From UHGV virus genome UHGV-0118820: DNA of 11,711 bases. One strand, given 5' to 3'. Of this stretch, positions 230 to 11,211 are shown piece by piece. The stretch comes from a virus. Within the stretch, counting starts at the first letter, position 1. Every line of letters starts with the position of its first letter. The translations under genes were made by a program, and so were the position numbers. The notes under the pieces were generated by a model, which saw nothing but the letters and a program-made list of their open reading frames with translations, did no database searches and had not been told where the DNA came from.

Positions 230-3200
230 ATGACTCATCAAACACACACCATTGCTGAATCCAATAACTTTATCGTTCTTGATAAGTACATCAAAGCTGA
301 GCCAACAGGCGACAGCTACCAGAGCGAATCGGACCTGGAACGAGAACTGATTCAGGACCTGCGGAATCAGGGCTATGAATTTATATCCGTAAAATCACAG
401 TCGGCGATGCTGGCCAATGTTCGGGAACAGCTTCAGAACCTCAATGGTGTGGTGTTTAATGACAGCGAGTGGCGGCGTTTCACGGAGCAGTATCTGGATA
501 ACCCGAGCGATGGCATTCTGGATAAGACCCGTAAAATCCATATCGACTATATTTGCGACTTTATTTTTGATGACGAGCGTCTTGAGAACATCTATTTGAT
601 AGATAAAAAGAATCTCATGCGCAATAAGGTGCAGATTATCCAGCAGTTTGAACAGACGGGTTCTCATGCTAACCGTTATGACGTCACGATCCTGGTTAAT
701 GGCTTACCGCTGGTGCAAATCGAACTGAAAAAACGCGGCGTGGCGATTCGTGAGGCTTTCAACCAGATACATCGTTACAGTAAAGAGAGTTTTAACAGCG
801 AAAATTCCCTGTTTAAGTATCTGCAACTGTTTGTCATTTCTAACGGCACCGATACCCGTTATTTTGCCAACACGACAAAGCGCGATAAAAACAGTTTTGA
901 CTTCACCATGAATTGGGCGAAATCAGACAACACGCTGATTAAAGACCTCAAAGATTTTACCGCTACCTTTTTCCAGAAACATACTCTGCTTAATGTTCTG
1001 GTGAACTACAGCGTTTTTGACAGCAGTCAGACGCTACTGGTGATGCGACCGTACCAGATTGCTGCCACCGAGCGCATTCTGTGGAAAATTAAGAGTTCCT
1101 TTACAGCGAAGAACTGGTCAAAACCGGAAAGCGGTGGGTATATCTGGCACACTACCGGTTCTGGTAAAACCCTCACCAGCTTTAAAGCCGCGCGTCTGGC
1201 AACAGAGCTGGACTTTATTGATAAAGTCTTCTTCGTGGTCGACAGGAAAGACCTCGATTACCAGACCATGAAGGAATATCAGCGTTTTTCGCCAGACAGC
1301 GTCAACGGCTCGGAAAATACCGCAGGCCTTAAACGAAATCTGGATAAGGACGATAACAAAATTATCGTCACTACTATTCAGAAACTCAATAACCTGATGA
1401 AAGCAGAAAGCGACCTGCCTGTATACAATCAGCAAGTGGTGTTTATATTTGATGAATGCCACCGCAGCCAGTTTGGAGAAGCGCAGAAAAACCTGAAGAA
1501 GAAATTCAAACGCTATTATCAGTTTGGTTTTACCGGTACCCCTATTTTCCCGGAAAACGCCTTAGGCTCAGAAACGACCGCCAGCGTATTTGGTCGTGAA
1601 TTGCATTCGTATGTAATTACCGATGCGATTCGTGATGAAAAAGTGCTCAAATTCAAGGTGGACTACAACGATGTGCGGCCACAGTTTAAGTCTTTAGAGA
1701 CAGAAACTGACGAGAAAAAACTAAGTGCGGCTGAAAATCAGCAGGCGTTTCTTCATCCCATGCGTATTCAGGAAATCACGCAATATATTCTGAATAATTT
1801 CCGCCAGAAAACTCACCGTACCTTCCCTGGCTCAAAAGGTTTTAATGCTATGTTGGCAGTGAGCAGCGTGGATGCCGCGAAAGCCTATTACGCGACGTTT
1901 AAACGGTTACAAGAGGAAGCAGCTAATAAATCGGCTACCTATAAACCGCTGCGTGTTGCGACAATCTTCTCCTTTGCTGCCAATGAAGAACAAAATGCCA
2001 TTGGTGAAATTTCCGATGAAACTTTTGATACCAGCGCAATGGACAGCAGTGCTAAAGAGTTTCTTGACGCTGCAATTCGTGAGTATAACAGCTATTTTAA
2101 AACTAACTTCAGCACCGACAGTAACGGTTTTCAGAACTACTATCGTGATTTAGCCCAACGGGTTAAAAATCAGGATATCGATCTGTTAATTGTCGTGGGG
2201 ATGTTTTTAACTGGCTTCGATGCTCCAACATTGAACACGCTATTCGTCGATAAAAACTTGCGTTTTCACGGCCTGATGCAGGCATTTTCCCGCACCAACC
2301 GTATTTATGATGCAACTAAAACCTTCGGTAATATCGTCACTTTCCGGGATCTGGAACGCTCAACTATTGATGCCATAACGCTGTTTGGTGACAAAAACAC
2401 CAAAAATGTGGTTTTAGAAAAGAGTTATGCAGAGTATATGGAAGGCTTTACTGATGCTGCCACTGGTGAAGCTAAGCGCGGCTTTATGGCAGTAGTTTCA
2501 GAACTGGAACAACGGTTCCCTGACCCTGCCAGTATTGAAAGTGAAAAAGAGAAGAAAGACTTCGTTAAACTGTTTGGTGAATACCTGCGTGCCGAGAACA
2601 TCCTGCAAAACTATGATGAATTTGCCACGCTGAAAGCCCTGCAACAAATCGATCTTAGCGATCCTGTTGCGGTAGAAAAATTCAAAGCAGAACATTATGT
2701 GGATGATGAAAAGCTCGCTGAATTGCAAACAATTCGTCTCCCTGCTGATCGCAAGATTCAGGATTATCGTTCTGCCTATAACGATATTCGCGACTGGCAG
2801 CGCCGTGAGAAAGAAGCTGAGAAAAAAGAGAAATCAACCACTGACTGGGATGACGTAGTTTTTGAGGTCGATTTGCTGAAGTCTCAGGAAATAAACCTGG
2901 ATTATATCCTTGGACTGATTTTCGAACACAACAGACAAAATAAAGGCAAGGGCGAAATGATCGAAGAGGTCAAACGCTTAATTCGTTCAAGCCTAGGGAA
3001 CCGTGCTAAAGAGGGCCTGGTGGTCGATTTTATTCAGCAAACGAACCTGGATGATTTACCAGACAAAGCCAGTATCATTGAGGCATTCTTTACGTTTGCT
3101 CAACGCGAACAGCAACGTGAAGCAGAAGCATTGATAAAAGAAGAAAATCTCAATGAAGATGCAGCAAAACGCTATATTCGCACGTCTTTAAAACGCGAAT

Positions 3201-3346
3201 ACGCCACCGAAAATGGCACAGAATTAAACGAAACATTACCAAAACTTAGTCCGTTAAATCCGCAATATAAAACGAAAAAACAGGCAGTTTTCCAGAAAAT
3301 CGTCTCGTTTATTGAGAAGTTTAAAGACGTAGGCGGAAAAATATAG
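230..3346 (+). CDS. hsdR: Type I restriction enzyme R subunit (HsdR), intact, 1038 aa; EcoR124-like (type IC) by recollection
   Basis: Single uninterrupted 3117-nt ORF with SD AAGGA. Contains helicase motif I (WHTTGSGKT), DEAD-box-like motif II (FIFDECH), an N-terminal PD-(D/E)xK nuclease region (VQIELKK) and motif VI (QAFSRTNR). Length and N-terminal sequence match my recollection of EcoR124I HsdR. Confidence 0.95.
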
Positions 3347-3391: not shown

Positions 3392-3429
3392 GACCGTGGG
3401 GTTCCAAATGGCTAATATACTCCCCTTAC

Positions 3430-3513
3430 CTATGCGCGACAATGCTGCCAAAAGTGATAGAGAACAGCCAGAAATAGATCGCGGCCATAATGATTTTGAA
3501 TGCCGTGTTCATA
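3430..3513 (-). CDS. Candidate small hydrophobic peptide (27 aa, MNTAFKIIMAADLFLAVLYHFWQHCRA)
   Basis: ATG at 3513-3511 preceded by AGGAG (3526-3522) with 8-nt spacer; TAG stop at 3432-3430. Below the size cutoff of the ORF track. Predicted single membrane-spanning segment. No homolog recalled. Confidence 0.25.
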   Translation of the reverse strand, partial: YEHGIQNHYGRDLFLAVLYHFWQHCRA

Positions 3514-3540
3514 TTTTCAGCTCCTGTGATTGATTGGATA

Positions 3541-3570
3541 CATGCCGCGCCTTGCGGCATGTTTTTATTT
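3541..3570 (+). terminator. Rho-independent terminator (plus strand), probable hsdR transcript end
   Basis: GC-rich hairpin CATGCCGC-gcctt-GCGGCATG (3541-3561) followed by TTTTTATTTT. Confidence 0.6.
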
Positions 3571-3581
3571 TCCCTTTCTCT

Positions 3582-3621
3582 GTTTTAAAAATCAATATTT
3601 ATTAGAGCAATTATTGCTGAT
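3582..3621. repeat. Copy A of ~40-bp imperfect direct repeat (GTTTTAAAAAT-N6-TTATTAGAGCAAT-TATTGCTGAT), overlapping the stop codon of the HAD gene
   Basis: Matches 5723..5763 by eye: identical 11-mer and identical 13-mer, similar 3' tail. The 13-mer core also occurs inverted at 5687..5699. Confidence 0.55.
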
Positions 3622-4117
3622 GAAGAAGCGCGTTTTCATACTCCCTGACCATTAACGTAAGCACGCCGTGCCTCCTGAAAACACGCGCCACTTCAATCTT
3701 ATCTTCCAGCGCGAACGCAATTTTACTTAGACCAATTTTCTTAAGGAGATCAATCTTTGCTGGACCGTCATTTCTGTCATCGGTGGCGGGACGCATAGAT
3801 AGCAAAGGCTCTGCCCCATTTGTTACGTGCTTACGCAACCAGGCTCGTGTTTTATCCCTGGCTATCTCACAGCGCCCGGTTACAAACCAGAGCGTGTAAA
3901 TGCTGGACAACTGGCGCACCATATCAATAACTGGAGTGATGGGAGCATCAGTGTCACAGGCAAGGTTAAACTCGTTCCAGTGCTCTGTTAATGCACCGTT
4001 GCCAGGCGGTGGAAGTAAATGCAGCCTGTCTTCCGTTGCCTCTGATATCGTCCCATCAATATCTACTATGACGATATACGGACGTTCCTGGTGTGCGTGT
4101 TTATTGAAAATACTCAA
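3611..4117 (-). CDS. HAD-superfamily phosphatase, resembling the 3'-phosphatase domain of T4 polynucleotide kinase-phosphatase (stand-alone, no kinase domain)
   Basis: 168-aa ORF with TTG start preceded by GAGGAGG. HAD motif I IVDIDGT near the N-terminus; C-terminal LEDKIEVARVFRRHGV resembles my recollection of the T4 Pnkp tail IDDRTQVVEMWRRIGV. No P-loop. Confidence 0.65.
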   Translation of the reverse strand: MSIFNKHAHQERPYIVIVDIDGTISEATEDRLHLLPPPGNGALTEHWNEFNLACDTDAPITPVIDMVRQLSSIYTLWFVTGRCEIARDKTRAWLRKHVTNGAEPLLSMRPATDDRNDGPAKIDLLKKIGLSKIAFALEDKIEVARVFRRHGVLTLMVREYENALLHQQ

Positions 4118-4136
4118 ATGCCCTCCTCATTGGACG

Positions 4137-4170
4137 AAAAAAATGCTGGTGGGAGCACTCCACCAGCATT
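4137..4170 (-). terminator. Rho-independent terminator for the 420-aa gene (minus strand), directly upstream of the HAD gene RBS
   Basis: 11-bp stem AATGCTGGTGG / CCACCAGCATT (4142-4152 / 4160-4170) with 7-nt loop. On the minus strand it is followed by a U-run (plus-strand A-run ending at 4143). Confidence 0.55.
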
Positions 4171-4189
4171 AAAAGTGACACTGTAACTA

Positions 4190-5452
4190 TCAGCGAACGT
4201 AAATAGTGCCGCCGTTCTCTTTTTCCCATGCATCGCTACGTGCATAGCAAACATCGAGAAGTCTTCTTGCCGCAGTTTCCTCTAAACCCAATTCGACAAC
4301 CAACTGCTCATGACGGCGGGTAACCACATCAAACAGGGTATGCAGCCCTTTAGTTGCCAGATCATCAATGAATTCCGGTTCGAACGGCAGCTCTGCATCT
4401 GCCAACATAACCTCTTGCGCCCACTCAACTCGACGGACCAGTTCCGGGCGGCGGCTTTCCATCTCTTTACAGATCAATTCATGGAAGAACTCTACCCAAC
4501 CTTCCGGCTGGAACTCGCGGAAAATTGCCAACGGCTGGAAGTTTGGCATCAACCATTCGTTGATTCGGATATCAATGGCATAGCCCATGTCGCAGCAGAA
4601 CTGATAAGCAAAGTCCAGCTTAGAAACGATATAAGGACGCTCGTTATTGAACTCTTTAGGCGATGAGATCCCATAAGCCAGGAGGCGCGGGAAGAAGGAG
4701 ATTTGCCCTAACGTCGGATGAAGTTTGCTTGCAGGGAAACGTCGCTCAGTAATGCCATACATTTCCTTCTTGAGCGTCGCAAATTTGGCATTCTCATTAA
4801 CCAGCGCGGTAACCTCTGCTTTTTTATTAGCAAATGCCACGCGCGCCTCGCTTGCATCTTTAATAGTTTTTTTGAGCTGTTGGTTAAGGTCGGCGACCTG
4901 CTTACGCAGTTCCTGTCGCTCGCTTTTAGCTTTGTTATAGCGTTTCTCAAGGTTAAAAGGATCAAGTTTCATGATCTCTTTATATTGAGATTTTAGCGTT
5001 GAAATCTGTGAGTTCCGCAGTTCAACCATCGCGGTCATTTCATTGAGTTTTGTTTCCAGCTCAATGCTTATACGTTCGGCATTATCAGCACGCTGGTTGG
5101 CGTCATGCGTCGCATCGTCGATCGCGTCCTGTTGCTGGCGTTTCAAATGTTCAATTTGCAGCTGAAGCTCTTCAATTTCTTTACCCTTCAGACCGAGATC
5201 CAACTGCATATTTTCAGCTGCATCTACCAGGGAGTTATGGCTATCAGCTTCTGCGTTATAAACATCAATAAGCTGTGCGTGAAGCATCTCCGCTGACTGA
5301 ACCGCATTATCAAAAAAACGTGCTGTGAGGTCATCACAACTAACGCGGCGTTGCGCGGCCCGGATGTTCTGGATAATGGCCGGGATACCGGCATTCAGGA
5401 CGTCAGGGATAGATACATTTTCGATTGATTGGTTTTGTGCTGAAGTGCTCAT
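4190..5452 (-). CDS. Hypothetical protein, 420 aa: N-terminal ~230 aa predicted coiled coil, C-terminal ~190 aa globular domain of unknown family
   Basis: Long uninterrupted ORF. Start ATG 5452-5450 is 1 nt downstream of the stop of the 72-aa ORF. No P-loop or nuclease motif seen. Heptad-like Q/E/K/L-rich N-terminal half. Confidence 0.8.
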   Translation of the reverse strand: MSTSAQNQSIENVSIPDVLNAGIPAIIQNIRAAQRRVSCDDLTARFFDNAVQSAEMLHAQLIDVYNAEADSHNSLVDAAENMQLDLGLKGKEIEELQLQIEHLKRQQQDAIDDATHDANQRADNAERISIELETKLNEMTAMVELRNSQISTLKSQYKEIMKLDPFNLEKRYNKAKSERQELRKQVADLNQQLKKTIKDASEARVAFANKKAEVTALVNENAKFATLKKEMYGITERRFPASKLHPTLGQISFFPRLLAYGISSPKEFNNERPYIVSKLDFAYQFCCDMGYAIDIRINEWLMPNFQPLAIFREFQPEGWVEFFHELICKEMESRRPELVRRVEWAQEVMLADAELPFEPEFIDDLATKGLHTLFDVVTRRHEQLVVELGLEETAARRLLDVCYARSDAWEKENGGTIYVR

Positions 5453-5453
5453 T

Positions 5454-5672
5454 TCAAAGTTCCGTATTAGCTTGTGCTTCGGTCATTTTTCCTAAGTATG
5501 AAGGAGGAAGGACTACGCAATTTGTATCCAGTCCCTCACCTATGGCAGCCTGTAAAATTCTGGCTAAGGTGAGTCTCTTGTTGCGATACCTGGTGATGAC
5601 ATGCCTGATACCGCCGGTCGGCGTAACAAAGGCGATCAGCCAGTAGTGATATTTCCGTCGGAATGGCCACAT
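5454..5672 (-). CDS. Hypothetical small protein (72 aa), translationally coupled to the 420-aa gene
   Basis: ATG 5672-5670 preceded by AAGGTG. Stop TGA 5456-5454, then 1 nt, then the ATG of the downstream gene. No family recognised. Confidence 0.5.
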   Translation of the reverse strand: MWPFRRKYHYWLIAFVTPTGGIRHVITRYRNKRLTLARILQAAIGEGLDTNCVVLPPSYLGKMTEAQANTEL

Positions 5673-5686
5673 AGTGCACCTTATGG

Positions 5687-5752
5687 ATTGCTCTAATAAA
5701 AAACGTGATGAGTGTACATCACGTTTTAAAAATATGGAATTATTAGAGCAAT
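5687..5752. repeat. Perfect 13-bp inverted repeat (ATTGCTCTAATAA at 5687-5699 / TTATTAGAGCAAT at 5740-5752) bracketing a terminator hairpin
   Basis: Read directly from sequence. The arms are the same 13-mer that forms the core of the direct repeat at 3599-3611. Confidence 0.6.
5698..5727 (-). terminator. Bidirectional Rho-independent terminator ending the minus-strand operon 8768..5754
   Basis: Stem CGTGATG / CATCACG (5704-5710 / 5717-5723) with 6-nt loop, flanked by A6 on the left and T4 on the right. Reads as hairpin plus U6 on the minus strand. Confidence 0.55.
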
Positions 5753-5763
5753 ATTATTCTGAT
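5723..5763. repeat. Copy B of ~40-bp imperfect direct repeat, overlapping the stop codon of the glycosyltransferase-like gene
   Basis: See copy A (3582..3621). Both copies lie directly 3' of the stop codon of a minus-strand gene. Confidence 0.55.
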
Positions 5764-6455
5764 TCTTGCTCAAAAAACGAGCTGGTAAGGGGAAGCCAAT
5801 CCTCTGACACTTCGCGAGGCCGCGGTTTGCCGTGGAAAAAGATTATTCGGCAGTCTTTTGGTAATGCCCCATTCCCCCTGGAGTAACGCGCGCTCGCATA
5901 TTTTGAACCAGGTTCCACAACATCGGCCTTGTAACTTACAAACCATCCTGGATACAGATCCTGAAATGCTGGTGTATCATCGCCCATAACCTTTCGTAAG
6001 AACCCCTGGTCACCCCAGCACTCAGTAGTGACACAACGAGAAATCCAACCTTCCGGATCTTGCCAGAATGAACTCCAGATATGCGCTTTAACACTATTTG
6101 GTATCCACAGGGCACCGCTGCCACGATATTGTGGATGGTAAAAATCCCTAAGCATGGTGAAGCTGGTTGGTGGATGCTCTAGGATTGGGCGTATATCACC
6201 GGCAATAACCGTGTCCAAATCCAGATAGAACAGATCATCGGTTATATCCGGTCGGAACAACTCGATTTTCGCCCACCAGCCACGGCACTTTTGCCACTGG
6301 TTGATCAATGGGACAACTTTGACGCCAGGTACATGTAAACGCTTCAGGTCTGTCAGGCAAATAATTTCATAGCCTTTTGGCAGTTGATTAACCAGCCACT
6401 GCACATCGGAAGCGTTATAGTCACCACCAGAGCGAAAAACTAAAGCAATCTTCAT
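5754..6455 (-). CDS. Putative GT-A fold glycosyltransferase (DxD-type), 233 aa
   Basis: [13 protein letters not shown] matches the DxD nucleotide-sugar/metal motif context. C-terminal FHGKPRP resembles the H-x-G-x-KPW motif of GT8/GT32-like enzymes. ATG overlaps the stop of the upstream phosphatase ORF as ATGA. Confidence 0.55.
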
Positions 6456-7107
6456 GCTGCACCATCACCTTTCACTTTCATCAATGTCAGGTTTCCGCAA
6501 AATACGGCACCAGTGTCGATATACTGCTGATTCCAGAATGTCTTCGGGCTTTTCACCGGAGTGTGACCAAAGATAAAACGATCTGCGCCCGAAATTTCGC
6601 CACCAATATCATCCATCGAATCACTGATACGCTCGCGCGCCCAGACAACGTTGAAAAGCGGCACCTCCTTACCGAATTGGTATTCATTATCCGGATAGTC
6701 GGCATGGGCTATAACGATAGTTTCTTGCCCGGTGTTCAACTCAATGATATAGGGCAGACGTCTTACCAGCTCCACCAGCGCCCTGGCTAATATTTCCTGA
6801 TCAGTGTCCAGCATGAAGAACCATTGTCCGCCATTCATTAGCCAGTTATTCACGTTATCATCAGCCGCTCATGGTTCCCCATCACTGCCCTGAACCAGGG
6901 CATCTGCAATAGTTCCAGACATTCGACATTTTCAGTACCGCGATCGATAAGGTCGCCGACCGATATCAGTAAATCCTGCGCCGGGTCAAAATCCACACGA
7001 TGGAGTTCGGACATCAGTCTGGTGTAGCAACCATGCAGATCACCAACAACCCAGACATTCCTGTATTTGGTACCGTCGATACGGTGATAAATTGTGGGTG
7101 CCATCAT
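6452..7107 (-). pseudogene. Lambda-type Ser/Thr protein phosphatase (calcineurin-like metallophosphoesterase), interrupted by a frameshift
   Basis: Two adjacent ORFs (7107..6850 and 6853..6452) in different frames. Together they carry GDLHGC, GDLIDRG, GNHE, then WLMNGG and [13 protein letters not shown], closely matching my recollection of lambda phosphatase. The frame breaks right after GNHERLMIT, where about 7 residues expected before NVNNW are missing. Confidence 0.75.
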
Positions 7108-7730
7108 GTATTCTTCAGCCATTCTTTAAGAGTCATCTGCGGAATACCTCCCATTTTCCCGCATGAAACAACGTCAATCCGTTCACGCGCAGACTGGAAT
7201 AACAAAGGCAGGTGACTTAGATTTTTTGGCGTGCCGCCGGAGTGAACGCGTGGTTCTTGTGTAGCGTCAACGCCCACCAGGGCGACATGTTTGAATCCGA
7301 TATGGAAAGCCAGGTTCAGAGCGCCATATGCACTATTGCCGCTGGCAATTTCATTCTCATCTTCGCAAAGTCCGAAATGTGCGGACCAGCGCCACGCCCA
7401 CCACTCGGGAGAATTCGTATTTTTTGGCTCCATGCCACGTTCAGCCACACGACGGAAGCACAGAACGCCGTCTCTGACTTCACGTTCTTTAACATCGGGT
7501 AGTGCCATGCAATAACAAACACCACGGCGACGGCGGCCACGACCAACGCGCCGCATATTGTCTGGCGATGGATCAAGGGTGAAAAAATAAGAAGCGCGGT
7601 TCAGCCAGTCGATGGCCCCATTGACCGCTATAATCGGCACTCCGCGCGGCGCAACAAAGTTTGCGGCGCTTGGGCCACTGCCGACGATAATAACGCGATC
7701 ACTGCCTCTAAATTTATTCTTGGGAAACAT
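7104..7730 (-). CDS. GT42 sialyltransferase-like / DUF115 (MptE-like) Rossmann-fold protein, paralog B (208 aa)
   Basis: N-terminal [10 protein letters not shown] and IIAVNG, later [12 protein letters not shown] and VALVGVD. This pattern resembles Cst-II-type sialyltransferases (IIAGNGPSL, FRCNQ) from memory. Stop overlaps the phosphatase start as ATGA. Start preceded by AGGAG. Confidence 0.55.
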
Positions 7731-8257
7731 TGAATTGCACTGCTCCTACTTGCATTCAAAATATGTAAATCTGCGTGTTTTTTGCGGGTATCCAGGAACT
7801 GCTGTTGCCATTTTGAAATAGACACCTGCGTTGGATTCCGTAGGGCTTGAGGGTGCGCGCCATGCCAATGAAGGCCGTTTTGCAGAGAACAGTCATAGCC
7901 GACTAATACCACTACTTCAGCCCCTGATTCAGCAGCCAGACTGATAGCCTGCGCGCCGCTATTTACCCCTTCCGCCGGTCCACAATATCGCCTGTACTCC
8001 AACGAAAATGATTTCGCCGCCGCCAGGTTGGCTGTCACTTTGCGGAATCTCCCTCCCGGTATGGTGGATCCGTATTGCTTCCACCATGACAAATCACCGG
8101 CGTATAAGGCATAAATGTCATCGAACATCTGCCAGGAATTGTTAACCGCGATGATTGAACAGCCAGTTTTTTCTATAGCAGCACAGTCCTCACGAGTGAG
8201 TGACGGACCGCTACCGACACAAAAAACAGTCCTAGTCGCCCTGGGTGGTATGTTCAT
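7628..8257 (-). CDS. GT42 sialyltransferase-like / DUF115 (MptE-like) Rossmann-fold protein, paralog A (start placed at MNIPP)
   Basis: VFCVGSGPSL, IIAVNNS, NSGAQAISLA and VVVLVGYD parallel the motifs of paralog B. The ORF could begin 11 codons earlier at 8290. Its 3' end overlaps the start of paralog B by about 100 nt. Confidence 0.55.
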   Translation of the reverse strand: MNIPPRATRTVFCVGSGPSLTREDCAAIEKTGCSIIAVNNSWQMFDDIYALYAGDLSWWKQYGSTIPGGRFRKVTANLAAAKSFSLEYRRYCGPAEGVNSGAQAISLAAESGAEVVVLVGYDCSLQNGLHWHGAHPQALRNPTQVSISKWQQQFLDTRKKHADLHILNASRSSAIQCFPRINLEAVIALLSSAVAQAPQTLLRRAECRL

Positions 8258-8429
8258 TCTCAGCTGCAAATTCAGCCTCCAGGCGAGCATTCATTTCAGC
8301 GATTACCGGGTCCACTACAGCATCTGCTTCCTGTTCATTACGCGGCATGATCGATGCCAGCGATTCATAATTAGCCTTGAATGACACGATTATTCTCCCG
8401 ATGTTAATGTGCGCTATATCAAAGAGCAC
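8232..8429 (-). CDS. Possible small acidic protein (at most 65 aa; GTG-initiated in the ORF track)
   Basis: ORF-track entry only. No convincing RBS. Overlaps the start of paralog A. AT-rich upstream region. Confidence 0.2.
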   Translation of the reverse strand: MLFDIAHINIGRIIVSFKANYESLASIMPRNEQEADAVVDPVIAEMNARLEAEFAAENEHTTQGD

Positions 8430-8453
8430 ATATGCACTAATTAATTTATTATT

Positions 8454-8768
8454 TTAAGCAGCATACAACCACTTATCGCCGTTCAATACATGCTCAATAG
8501 CCTCACCCTTTTTAAGGCTTATGTATTCCAGGATGGCGGTAATCGCTTGTTCTGCACCATACGCAAGAACGACGTAGTAACCTTCCTCTCTAAGCCTGCG
8601 CATCCAGGCGATCTGCTCTTTCGTCGGGGCTTTACCATTTGGTTCTTTAAGCTCAATTCGCATGCCGTGATAAATACCGCATGCTTTATCGAGACTCATG
8701 TCCGGATAACCTTTTTTCTGCCCTTCAGCCTTCATTTTCCCGGCGGTTGCTTTTGAACGTTTCCCTCT
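8454..8768 (-). pseudogene. VRR-NUC domain (PD-(D/E)xK) nuclease gene, 5' end truncated by IS insertion
   Basis: GYPDMSL and IELKEPNGKAPTKEQIAWMRRLREEGYYVV match the VRR-NUC core. The N-terminal part of the domain is absent. The ORF-track N-terminus ([24 protein letters not shown], 8769-8840) is encoded by the IS inverted repeat, so it is a chimeric artefact. Confidence 0.7.
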
Positions 8769-8839
8769 GAAGTGGTTTACTGAATTTGGCCACCTGAACA
8801 GAGGTGATATGCTCACCTCAGAACAACACAGGTGCTCCA

Positions 8840-9102
8840 ATGAAAAAAAGAAATTTCAGCGCAGAGTTTAAACGCGAATCCGCTCAACTGGTTGTTGACC
8901 AGAACTACACGGTGGCAGATGCCGCCAAAGCTATGGATGTTGGCCTTTCCACAATGACAAGATGGGTCAAACAACTGCGTGATGAGCGTCAGGGCAAAAC
9001 ACCAAAAGCCTCTCCGATAACACCAGAACAAATCGAAATACGTGAGCTGAGGAAAAAGCTACAACGCATTGAAATGGAGAATGAAATATTAAAAAAGGCT
9101 AC
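8840..9102 (+). pseudogene. IS3-family OrfA (HTH transposase N-terminal protein), 3' end interrupted by IS30
   Basis: [16 protein letters not shown]...[12 protein letters not shown], then the reading frame runs into the IS30 terminal repeat. The ORF-track start at 8804 is an upstream extension; ATG at 8840 is the likely true start. Confidence 0.8.
9091..9097 (+). promoter_or_regulatory. A-AAA-AAG programmed -1 frameshift heptamer of the IS3-family element
   Basis: AAAAAAG in the X-XXY-YYZ register of the orfA frame (codons tta-aaa-aag). Known frameshift signal of IS911-type elements. IS30 is inserted 5 nt downstream. Confidence 0.6.
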
Positions 9103-10323
9103 TGTAGATTCAATCTGTCAATGCAACACCCCTTTCAATTATCTCTTTCGGTGTTTTGAACTTCAGTGTCTTTCTCGGTCTGTTGTTTAGCTGAGCAGCA
9201 ACCAGATCTAGTTCATGTTGAGTATATTGGGCAAGACATGTCTTTTTAGGAAAGTACTGCCGAATTAGCCCATTTGTGTTCTCATTTGTTCCCCGCTGCC
9301 AAGGACTCTGAGGATCGCAGAAGTAAACTTTAACGCCGGTGCTGACAGTAAATTCTAGATGTCTGGCCAGTTCCATTCCTCTGTCCCATGTCAGTGATTT
9401 TCTGAGTTCTGACGGTAAACTCAGGAATTTGTCGGTAAGAGCCTGATTTACTGAGACAGAATCTTTGCCCCTGAGTCTAAGGATGATCGTATAACGTGAT
9501 TTTCGGTCTACAAGTGTGGCTATATGAGAGTTTTTTGTACCTGAGACTAAATCGCCCTCCCAATGCCCCAGAGAGCGTCTGTTATCGATATTTCGGGAAC
9601 GTTCGTGAATTGGTGTTCCGTTCACTATGTTAATCGTACCTCTTTCGCCTTTGCGGGTATGACGCCTGCCATGGCGAAGGCTATGCGACCGTCGCAGATG
9701 CTGTATATTCAGGTGGTGTAGCGCTTCACGGCTACGAAAGTACAGCGTTTTATAAATTGTCTCAGGTGATATTCGCAGCGTTTTTTGACGTGGTTTTGTT
9801 CGCCTTAACCATCCTGATATTTGCTCTGGAGACCATTTCATCTCCAGCTTTTCCAGAACAAGCTTTCGCAATGGTAAATTTTGATCCAGTAAGCACGGTT
9901 TTGGCCTTTTCGCCATTCTGTTGGCTCGGTTATTAGCATCAACAGCTTTGTAATAGCGTCTGCCCCGATTACGCTGAACTTCACGTGAGATCGTCGAAGG
10001 ACTGCGATTCAGCGCAGTAGCTATCGCACGAATGCTCATTTTGGCTGACAAACCAGCTCGTATCTCCTCGCGCTCAGACAGTGTCAGGTGAGCTACAGCC
10101 CGCTTACGCTCATGGGGTTTTATGCCGCCAGTATCCCTTAACATAGTGAAGATCGTTCCGGGTTTTGAACCCAGGATATTCGCTATTTCACTGAAGCCTG
10201 TTCCGTTCTTCCATAGTTCAAAAACAGAGGCTTTTTCCTCTGCTGTAAATGTTCGTCTCATTCAAAAAACCTCCGCAACCCCATGTTTTCACATAACTGT
10301 TGCGTTGACCAATTGAATCTACA
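9103..10323 (-). mobile_element. IS30, complete (1221 bp) with 26-bp terminal inverted repeats
   Basis: Terminal repeats TGTAGATTCAATCTGTCAATGCAACA (9103-9128) and TGTTGCGTTGACCAATTGAATCTACA (10298-10323). Length and ends match my recollection of IS30. Confidence 0.9.
9110..10261 (-). CDS. insI: IS30 transposase (383 aa)
   Basis: Intact 383-aa ORF with an N-terminal HTH region and a DDE integrase core (HWEGDLV). Size is as expected for the IS30 transposase. Confidence 0.92.
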
Positions 10324-10325
10324 GC

Positions 10326-11211
10326 GGCGTACTTCGCAAAGCTGTCCGACTGAGGTACGCCTTTATCCGTGACAACTCCTGTTGCTGGCCTGTTCGCCTG
10401 CTCTGTCGGGTGCTGGATGTTCATCCCAGTGGTTTTTACGCCTGGCTTCAGCAGCCGCATTCACAACGCCATCAGGCAGACCTGAGACTGACAGGACAGA
10501 TTAAACAGTTCTGGCTGGAATCGGGATGCGTCTATGGTTATCGCAAAATCCATCTGGATCTGCGTGACAGCGGGCAACAGTGCGGAGTAAACAGAGTCTG
10601 GAGACTGATGAAACGTGTCGGAATAAAGGCTCAGGTCGGATACCGAAGCCCGCGGGCACGTAAAGGCGAGGCCAGTATCGTGTCGCCCAACAGGCTTCAG
10701 CGACAGTTCAATCCGGATGCTCCGGATGAGCGTTGGGTAACGGATATAACCTACATCAGGACCCACGAAGGCTGGCTGTATCTTGCCGTGGTTGTTGATC
10801 TGTTCTCACGCAAAATTATCGGCTGGTCCATGCAATCCCGGATGACAAAGGACATTGTCCTGAACGCACTGCTGATGGCTGTATGGCGGCGTAATCCCCA
10901 AAAACAGGTGCTGGTTCATTCGGATCAGGGCAGTCAATGAATGGCAGTCGTTCCTGAAATCACACGGCCTGGAGGGCAGCATGAGCCGTCGCGGTAACTG
11001 CCATGATAATGCGGTTGCAGAAAGCTTTTTCCAGTTGTTGAAACGCGAACGGATAAAGAAAAAGATCTACGGAACGCGGGAAGAAGCCCGCAGCGATATT
11101 TTTGATTACATCGAAATGTTTTATAACAGTAAGCGTCGGCATGGTTCCAGCGATCAGATGTCACCGACAGAATATGAAAACCAGTATTATCAACGGCTCG
11201 GAAGTGTCTAA
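10326..11211 (+). pseudogene. IS3-family OrfB (DDE transposase/integrase), frameshifted
   Basis: The frame is open from 10326 (…CRVLDVHPSGFYAW…) through WVTDITYI and LVHSDQGSQ to a stop at 10938-10940. The remaining C-terminus (SMSRRGNCHDNAVAESFF…) continues in another frame to TAA 11209-11211. A 1-nt-class indel lies near 10935-10945. Confidence 0.75.

Follow-up and report, generated by a model that had tools for sequence, protein, structure and literature searches.

Several described systems resemble the gene analysed here, an open reading frame (ORF) on the minus strand at positions 3611–4117 of an 11,711-nucleotide stretch of the virus genome UHGV-0118820 (this whole stretch is hereafter called the window). 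The polynucleotide kinase-phosphatase of bacteriophage T4 (T4 Pnkp, or PseT; PDB 1LTQ and 5UJ0) joins an N-terminal P-loop kinase domain to a C-terminal 3'-phosphatase domain, in which D165 accepts the phosphoryl group, D167 serves as general acid/base, S211 and K258 bind the phosphate, and D165 and D278 bind Mg; the enzyme hydrolyses 3'-dTMP with a turnover of 24 per second (PMC3592404). Bacterial Pnkp1 (PDB 4XRP/4XRU) is a kinase-phosphatase of 312 amino acids that forms a heterohexamer with a ligase and Hen1 in the Pnkp1-Rnl-Hen1 RNA repair complex. The class B and class C HAD acid phosphatases (AphA, e(P4), PF03767) have the HAD core in common with these enzymes, are secreted proteins or lipoproteins, and act on mononucleotides. 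Bacteriophage P1 itself carries pap (AAQ14064.1; P1 positions 83787–84293), labelled "putative P1 acid phosphatase" in AF234172. Finally, the presence of P1 DNA on the flanks of type IC hsd loci was described by Tyndall et al. in 1997 (Mol Microbiol 23:729; reference 364 in PMC12707154).

The gene at 3611–4117 is P1 pap, a native gene of the P1 backbone in its native synteny. The reading that we favour, with a probability of roughly 0.7, is that it encodes a native P1 stand-alone HAD phosphatase of the T4 Pnkp type, Mg-dependent through D19, which would act alone to unblock 3' ends.

Identification of the Gene as P1 pap

The ORF was confirmed at exactly these positions (Table 1). As the first-pass annotation of the window had read, the product carries a DxDGT motif (DIDGT, residues 19–23) and no kinase P-loop: the GxxxxGK[ST] (Walker A) motif is absent from the 168 residues, and motif I already lies at residue 19. 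Pap matched the Pfam family PF25109 HAD_PNKP ("polynucleotide kinase PNKP phosphatase domain") with 45.9 bits (E 8.4e-12; gathering cut-off 27.6), as well as three PHROG "polynucleotide kinase" families (best E 4.9e-56, another 1e-16), and an exhaustive HMMER search of 1.84 billion representatives returned 2975 cluster representatives at E<=1e-3. Because of these matches and relatives, pap is clearly a real gene and not a chance ORF. No NCBIfam model matched Pap; the name given to the gene by NCBI is "3'-phosphatase".

When positions 3400–8900 of the window were compared with phage genomes by megablast, P1, P7, RCS47, and SJ46 matched 97% of the query at about 98% identity. The window and P1 copies of pap are equal in length (507 bp) and 95.1% identical in DNA (25 of 507 bases differ, giving 16 synonymous and 8 non-synonymous codon changes), and 160 of the 168 residues (95%) are identical, none of the eight substitutions falling at a conserved position. 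Both genes have a TTG start, pmgS upstream, and the C1-repressor operator Op88 over the stop codon, with which, as in P1, the operator shares 1 nt, the pmgT promoters lying just beyond. The order of the P1 genes in AF234172 is, in the direction of transcription, pmgM, pmgN, pmgO, pmgP, ppp, pmgQ, pmgR, pmgS, and pap; pap is thus the last gene of the conserved block pmgM...ppp-pmgQ-pmgR-pmgS-pap, and it borders a variable region. High identity to P1 pap is accompanied by the pmgR-pmgS-pap-Op88 synteny, and the flanks are collinear with P1. What had been taken in the first-pass annotation for a neighbouring two-gene module is pmgR-pmgS, two P1 backbone genes, the former being a head-completion gene (PMC9024508). 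Around pap, the window differs from P1 in that the pmgT-humD segment 3' of pap is swapped for a type IC hsdMSR cassette and the element is decayed, ppp being frameshifted and pmgM cut by IS911::IS30, yet pap is intact.

Enzyme Class and Predicted Catalytic Residues

A profile made from 60 sequences of the Pap family was searched against solved structures. Its best matches were Pnkp1 (E 3.5e-28), the 3'-phosphatase domain of T4 Pnkp alone (1.3e-23), and full-length T4 Pnkp (1.8e-22), and the next match after the Pnkps was a class C acid phosphatase (2.8e-4). The fold of Pap is closest to solved polynucleotide 3'-phosphatase domains. A single-sequence search of the PDB had ranked de novo TIM-barrels above Pnkp1; this ranking was spurious and was settled by the profile search.

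In the HMMER alignment, T4 D165, D167, R176, D187, S211, R213, R246, D254, and K258 correspond to Pap D19, D21, R31, D57, T80, R82, R109, D117, and K121, respectively, and T4 D277-D278 to E138-D139. Motif I (D19-I-D21-G-T23), which aligns with T4 D165-V-D167-G-T169, is invariant in 57–60 family members; D19, D21, T80, K121, and D139 are all invariant or nearly invariant in the family, and R31, R82, R109, and D117 are invariant in family alignment A4. Their T4 counterparts R176, R213, R246, and D254, which lie outside the HAD core and are clade-specific, are reportedly essential according to mutagenesis by the Shuman laboratory. The predicted catalytic residues of Pap are D19 (nucleophile), D21 (acid/base), T80, R82, K121, E138, and D139. 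Judged from its sequence, Pap is a stand-alone member of the T4 Pnkp-type branch of the HAD (DxDxT) phosphatases with an intact catalytic constellation. The resemblance to the T4 Pnkp phosphatase domain noted in the first-pass annotation is therefore borne out by the HAD_PNKP match, the profile search, and the aligned catalytic residues, and the best matches in sequence and structure comparison were polynucleotide phosphatases, not the small-molecule HAD phosphatases that it had named as the competing outcome.

Pap is 22–26% identical to the T4 domain and differs from T4 Pnkp by the lack of the N-terminal P-loop kinase domain, by ED instead of DD in motif IV, and by about 13 extra residues after motif I, including a conserved Trp (W47). 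This insertion was considered as a mark of a stand-alone small-molecule clade, an idea that was rejected because it is also present in the five nearest relatives fused to a P-loop kinase. In contrast to Pnkp1, Pap is a single domain and no ligase or Hen1 partner is encoded nearby. The class B/C acid phosphatases are weak sequence and structure neighbours of Pap, with profile E values about 20 orders of magnitude weaker; Pap gave no PF03767 match at E<=0.01, and inspection of its N-terminus (MSIFNKHAHQERPY) revealed no signal peptide. The "phage phosphatases" described in a 2026 preprint as countering NAD+ depletion by RES were also considered and set aside, as they are Macro-domain ADPR (ADP-ribose)-1''-phosphatases unrelated to HAD enzymes.

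Relationship between pap and the Type IC hsd Locus

The first-pass annotation had placed the gene downstream of a type IC restriction locus. The typing holds, since HsdR matched Pfam EcoR124_C (E 1.8e-71), but "downstream" needs to be qualified: hsdR (plus strand) and pap (minus strand) converge tail to tail with 264 bp between them, and so no common transcript is possible. In pairwise alignment, the homology with P1 stops at about position 3420 of the window, which corresponds to the P1 pmgT start, and the megablast match to P1 begins at 3422. The order phd-doc / hsdM-hsdS-hsdR / pap-pmgS is found in the IncY P1-like plasmid pCE1537-E and in phage phi456. From this breakpoint and this gene order, the hsd cassette is an inserted element in which hsdMSR took the place of pmgT-humD between pap and phd-doc, and the tail-to-tail arrangement of hsdR and pap would be an accident of cassette insertion in a P1-type phage-plasmid. 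The proposal of a captured phage counter-defence gene thus has the direction reversed, the hsd cassette being the insert and pap the backbone.

The same junction between hsdR and P1 DNA is known from other type IC loci with P1 flanks (EcoR124, EcoDXXI, and EcoprrI). According to the P1 GenBank record, 84–220 bp of the pap-pmgT intergenic DNA are 96–98% identical to the DNA downstream of the EcoDXXI and R124/3 hsdR genes. In IncF-type plasmids just 84 bp of P1 DNA are left and pap is absent, whereas in the window the full P1 backbone continues. Unlike EcoprrI, the window locus is missing prrC: none was found between hsdS (which ends at about position 108) and hsdR (which starts at 230), the gap of about 120 bp holding no ORF, and no prrC-like gene was found in the window and related hsd loci. 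The hsd locus of phi456 contains two additional ORFs, which were considered as prrC-like and rejected, as they belong to an IS5-type transposase splitting hsdS. This transposase (L003, 3272–4539) carries the depositor label "putative baseplate hub protein".

A plasmid collection was searched with a 261-bp probe spanning the junction, and 870 records matched. The complete hsdR/pap junction was present in 262 of them, whereas in about 283 hsdR was joined to no more than 84 bp of P1 DNA, without pap, and about 305 had the P1 flank without hsdR, the latter two numbers being estimates from even sampling of the ranking. The IncF plasmid pA0140 (phd-doc-hsdMSR-IS1, no pap) is an example of the second group. 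The P1-type pmgT/pap junction was complete in 255 plasmid records. In P1-like contigs from IMG/VR, hsdR was found downstream of pap in 16, pmgT in 23, and other mosaics in about 20 (about 43 without hsdR), and wherever a contig reached far enough, pmgS was present upstream of pap. P1-like relatives with Pap 60% and 79% identical likewise kept the upstream block (VRR-NUC, MptE-like, Metallophos, and pmgQ/R/S-sized genes), and their downstream genes were unrelated. Consistent co-occurrence and co-orientation of pap with hsd were not observed, the genes being convergent and each being found without the other. Because each occurs without the other in hundreds of plasmids, pap and the adjacent restriction enzyme are most likely functionally unrelated, and the recurrence of the hsdR/pap junction reflects the common descent of P1-like plasmids.

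The occupants other than hsd downstream of pap were mosaic small accessory genes, one with a PmgT-like N-terminal domain; some appeared Ead/Ea22-like and one PAPS-reductase-like, as judged by reading translations only. The variable region 3' of pap was also considered as a defence island, and no recognisable defence system was seen in the translations of the variants without hsd.

In the IMG/VR contigs (L011–L073, pap at about 5001–5507), pap was 92–98% identical in DNA to the window copy and fell into two apparent allele groups, pmgS being mostly about 99% identical. In three contigs (L070–L072), the match was confined to the first 130–180 nt of pap. The greater divergence of pap relative to pmgS and the three contigs matching in the 5' part only suggest recombination breakpoints inside pap, at the edge of the variable region.

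Family Context and Gene Neighbourhoods

The top 150 representatives of the family were mostly stand-alone proteins of 130–180 amino acids, with about five kinase-phosphatase fusions. Among the neighbours of 17 distant viral homologues, RNase_T exonucleases (five proteins) and the RNA ligases PF09414 (three) and PF09511 (two) were the most frequent Pfam families, and the RNA-ligase neighbours were traced to three confirmed ligase loci. The ligase gene directly adjoins the phosphatase gene in one of them (L086); a T4 Rnl1-type ligase lies 1.4 kb off in another (L082), and in the third (L084) the homologue is a fused kinase-phosphatase with the ligase 1 kb away. In the P1-like relative with 60% Pap identity (L009, 7135–8489), a gene for a Rv2179c-like 3'-5' exoribonuclease, immediately 5' of pap, and an ORF of 101 amino acids are inserted between pmgS and pap. 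Together with the recurrence of RNase_T near distant stand-alone homologues, this arrangement points to a possible functional pairing of the phosphatase with an exonuclease. Other homologues adjoin thymidylate synthase or, on a bacterial chromosome, occupy a site flanked by ndh and ftsY/ribD. Since ligase and exonuclease neighbours occur alongside thymidylate synthase and housekeeping contexts, the Pap family is oriented towards nucleic acids, although its connection with RNA repair is not uniform.

Proposed Role of Pap and Alternative Explanations

Pap is most likely a Mg-dependent 3'-phosphomonoesterase, predicted to act on nucleic-acid 3' ends or on 3'-nucleotides. By homology with T4 Pnkp, D19 would carry the aspartyl-phosphate and D21 would serve as general acid/base, while T80 and K121 would bind the phosphate and Mg2+ would be coordinated by D19, D139, and the carbonyl of D21. 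Like the T4 enzyme, Pap would strip the 3'-phosphate from DNA or RNA ends and probably also from 3'-deoxynucleoside monophosphates (3'-dNMPs). Neither of the partner enzymes of a T4-type pathway was detected at E<=1 in the window and the complete P1 genome, whether the polynucleotide kinase, which was sought with a hidden Markov model from fused relatives, or the RNA ligase, which was sought with two phage ligases by phmmer, a search of limited sensitivity; nor is either annotated in P1. Because no kinase or RNA ligase was detected, the T4-style repair pathway is incomplete in P1, and Pap probably works alone, its context suggesting that it would free blocked 3' ends so that polymerases, ligase, exonucleases, or tailing enzymes of the host could use them.

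The pap gene is transcribed during P1vir infection. It is non-essential for P1 by CRISPR interference, and PMC10695390 also lists it as such on the strength of a knockout survey, in which 24 non-essential P1 knockouts were without change in plaquing or antirestriction (PMC9024508). The function of Pap would thus be accessory, one that the phage can do without in the laboratory and that has no connection with the neighbouring restriction enzyme.

Four observations weigh against a stand-alone 3'-end phosphatase at work in this element. The searchable literature yielded no biochemical work on Pap or on another stand-alone member of the family, and the substrate specificity of Pap is therefore one that we infer. 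The extra residues after motif I occupy the position of a cap insertion and could narrow the active site, and some stand-alone homologues lie in housekeeping chromosomal contexts. Moreover, the expression of pap from the decayed element of the window appears uncertain, since a terminator-like hairpin sits between pmgS and pap.

In the first-pass annotation, Pap was suggested to cooperate with the type IC locus, whether by providing immunity or repair within a defence module or as a captured end-healing gene directed against PrrC. The starting point was sound in that T4 Pnkp counters the PrrC anticodon nuclease (PMC3592404), and such a link would also fit the assignment of Pap to the T4 Pnkp type and the recurrence of the hsdR/pap junction in 262 plasmids. 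However, common descent accounts for this recurrence, pap is native to P1, where the site has no type IC system, and several hundred plasmids carry one without the other (about 283 with hsd only, about 305 with pap only). The two genes are convergent, the interval in which prrC would be expected is empty and the extra genes of the phi456 hsd locus are those of a transposase, no PADLOC defence-system model matched Pap, and no kinase or ligase was detected that would complete a T4-type pathway. The distribution data largely refute a partnership with hsd, which we regard as very improbable. A small-molecule nucleotidase, as implied by the "putative acid phosphatase" of the P1 annotation, would instead act in nucleotide salvage on 3'-(d)NMPs or another metabolite and not on polymer ends. 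This would be in line with the activity of T4 Pnkp itself on 3'-dTMP (PMC3592404), with the class B/C nucleotide acid phosphatases among the weaker matches of Pap, with the extra insertion in the cap region, and with the location of some homologues beside thymidylate synthase, NAD-salvage, or housekeeping genes. We consider it unlikely, as the similarity to polynucleotide phosphatases is stronger by some 20 orders of magnitude than that to acid phosphatases, the insertion is common to kinase-fused relatives, neighbouring RNA-ligase and 3'-5' exonuclease genes recur, and Pap has no signal peptide, unlike the class B/C enzymes.

Alternatively, Pap could belong to a split RNA end-healing pathway of counter-defence, in which 2',3'-cyclic phosphates would be opened by Ppp, the product of ppp, and the phosphate then removed by Pap, so that RNAs cut by ribotoxins of the host or of competitors would be rescued and the host would finish the repair. 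A 2',3'-cyclic phosphodiesterase activity is reported for the lambda phosphatase (PMC2190708), to which P1 Ppp is 64% identical according to the P1 annotation. Both genes belong to the same conserved block down to relatives with 60% identity in Pap, one P1-like relative has the Rv2179c-like exoribonuclease gene beside pap, and P1 encodes its own tRNAs. Against this stands the lack of a detected kinase or ligase in P1, and the E. coli ligase RtcB requires the very 3'-phosphate that Pap would remove. In addition, pap and ppp are both non-essential, and the survey cited for pap (PMC10695390) saw no antirestriction change in its 24 non-essential knockouts (PMC9024508). Since ppp is a pseudogene in the window, through a 22-bp deletion, the pair cannot act here. 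We therefore hold the split pathway to be improbable, and it is similarly doubtful that Pap, conserved with Ppp in P1-like phage-plasmids, serves as a 3'-end healer without kinase or ligase against the 3'-phosphate or 2',3'-cyclic-phosphate ends left by ribotoxins or DNA-damaging effectors of the host or of rival elements, with host enzymes finishing the repair. A stand-alone phosphatase of 3' ends, acting without dedicated partners, remains the reading that we prefer.

Other Features of the Window

The features located in the window are listed in Table 1. The terminator-like hairpin between pmgS and pap is a strong one that would leave pap needing read-through or an unrecognised promoter. The other strong terminator-like hairpin, on the plus strand, could now end hsdR transcripts. 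The 28-codon hydrophobic ORF (MNTAFKIIMAAIYFWLFSITFGSIVAHR) is unannotated in P1 AF234172, and a longer form of 44 codons is Orf75 of phage phi456; it lies between the C1-controlled pmgT promoters and the P1 pmgT start point, and survives here despite the replacement of pmgT by hsd.

Decay of the element is seen at both ppp, which encodes a lambda-type Ser/Thr phosphatase and is split by the deletion into ORFs of 90 and 133 amino acids, and pmgM, which encodes a VRR-NUC nuclease and from which an IS3-family element has removed about 64 codons at the N-terminal end. The OrfA of this element is IS911-like, and the element is itself interrupted by IS30. Weak PADLOC matches of PmgS to LmuB were discounted as coiled-coil, compositional similarities.

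The genes pmgO and pmgP, "putative morphogenetic" in P1, gave weak MptE-like or sialyltransferase-like matches, and pmgQ matched a PHROG "glycosyltransferase" family. All three are given as non-essential in a table of P1 genes (PMC10695390). In view of these enzyme-like matches and of this listing, they may encode glycosylation or modification enzymes rather than morphogenetic proteins.

Table 1. Positions of the features discussed, numbered from the first letter of the window.
Feature	Positions	Strand	Basis and remarks
hsdR, type IC, 1038 amino acids, convergent with pap	230–3346	+	Pfam EcoR124_C, T1R_D3-like, SWI2_SNF2, HSDR_N
P1 homology breakpoint	3415–3425		alignment; P1 backbone to the right, hsd cassette tail to the left
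28-codon hydrophobic ORF MNTAFKIIMAAIYFWLFSITFGSIVAHR with AGGAG ribosome-binding site	3426–3512	-	just upstream of pmgT in P1
Hairpin then T run	3540–3562	+	pattern scan; about 200 nt past the hsdR stop, within P1-derived sequence
P1 C1-repressor operator OpmgT/Op88 ATTGCTCTAATAAATAT	3595–3611	-	position transferred from the P1 GenBank annotation by alignment; sequence read
pap, 168 amino acids, TTG start; predicted stand-alone HAD_PNKP-type phosphatase	3611–4117	-	ORF list
Shine-Dalgarno-like GAGGAGGG, 3 nt 5' of the pap TTG start	4121–4128	-	read from sequence
Intrinsic-terminator-like hairpin, 11-bp stem then T run, between pmgS stop and pap start	4142–4170	-	pattern scan, consensus match only
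pmgS, 420 amino acids, coiled coil, P1 backbone gene upstream of pap	4190–5452	-	PHROG 1660 (E 1e-195); P1 annotation
pmgR, 72 amino acids, P1 backbone gene	5454–5672	-	PHROG 3177; P1 annotation
pmgO, pmgP, with pmgQ within the same region	5754–8290	-	
ppp, pseudogene	6452–7122	-	22-bp deletion relative to P1
pmgM region	8454–11211		
IS30 transposase, 383 amino acids	9110–10261		

Conclusions

The interpretation offered in the first-pass annotation is partly supported, its biochemical half being in agreement with our data and its biological half finding no support in them. Both the gene and its juxtaposition with hsd were already on record: the annotation of P1 has included pap since 2004, and the P1 DNA beside type IC hsd loci was reported in 1997, so that the present results carry little weight as a discovery. 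Their value is corrective, in that adjacency to a defence locus reflects here the insertion of a cassette into the variable region of a phage-plasmid, and not a functional module. If end healing by Ppp and Pap were nevertheless true, it would represent a logic of counter-defence distinct from the T4 Pnkp and Rnl1 pathway. Stand-alone Pnkp-type phosphatases are abundant, with thousands of clusters that are mostly phage-borne, and the searchable literature contains no biochemical characterisation of them; the role of a 3'-phosphatase that has neither kinase nor ligase could easily be studied with P1 Pap as a model.

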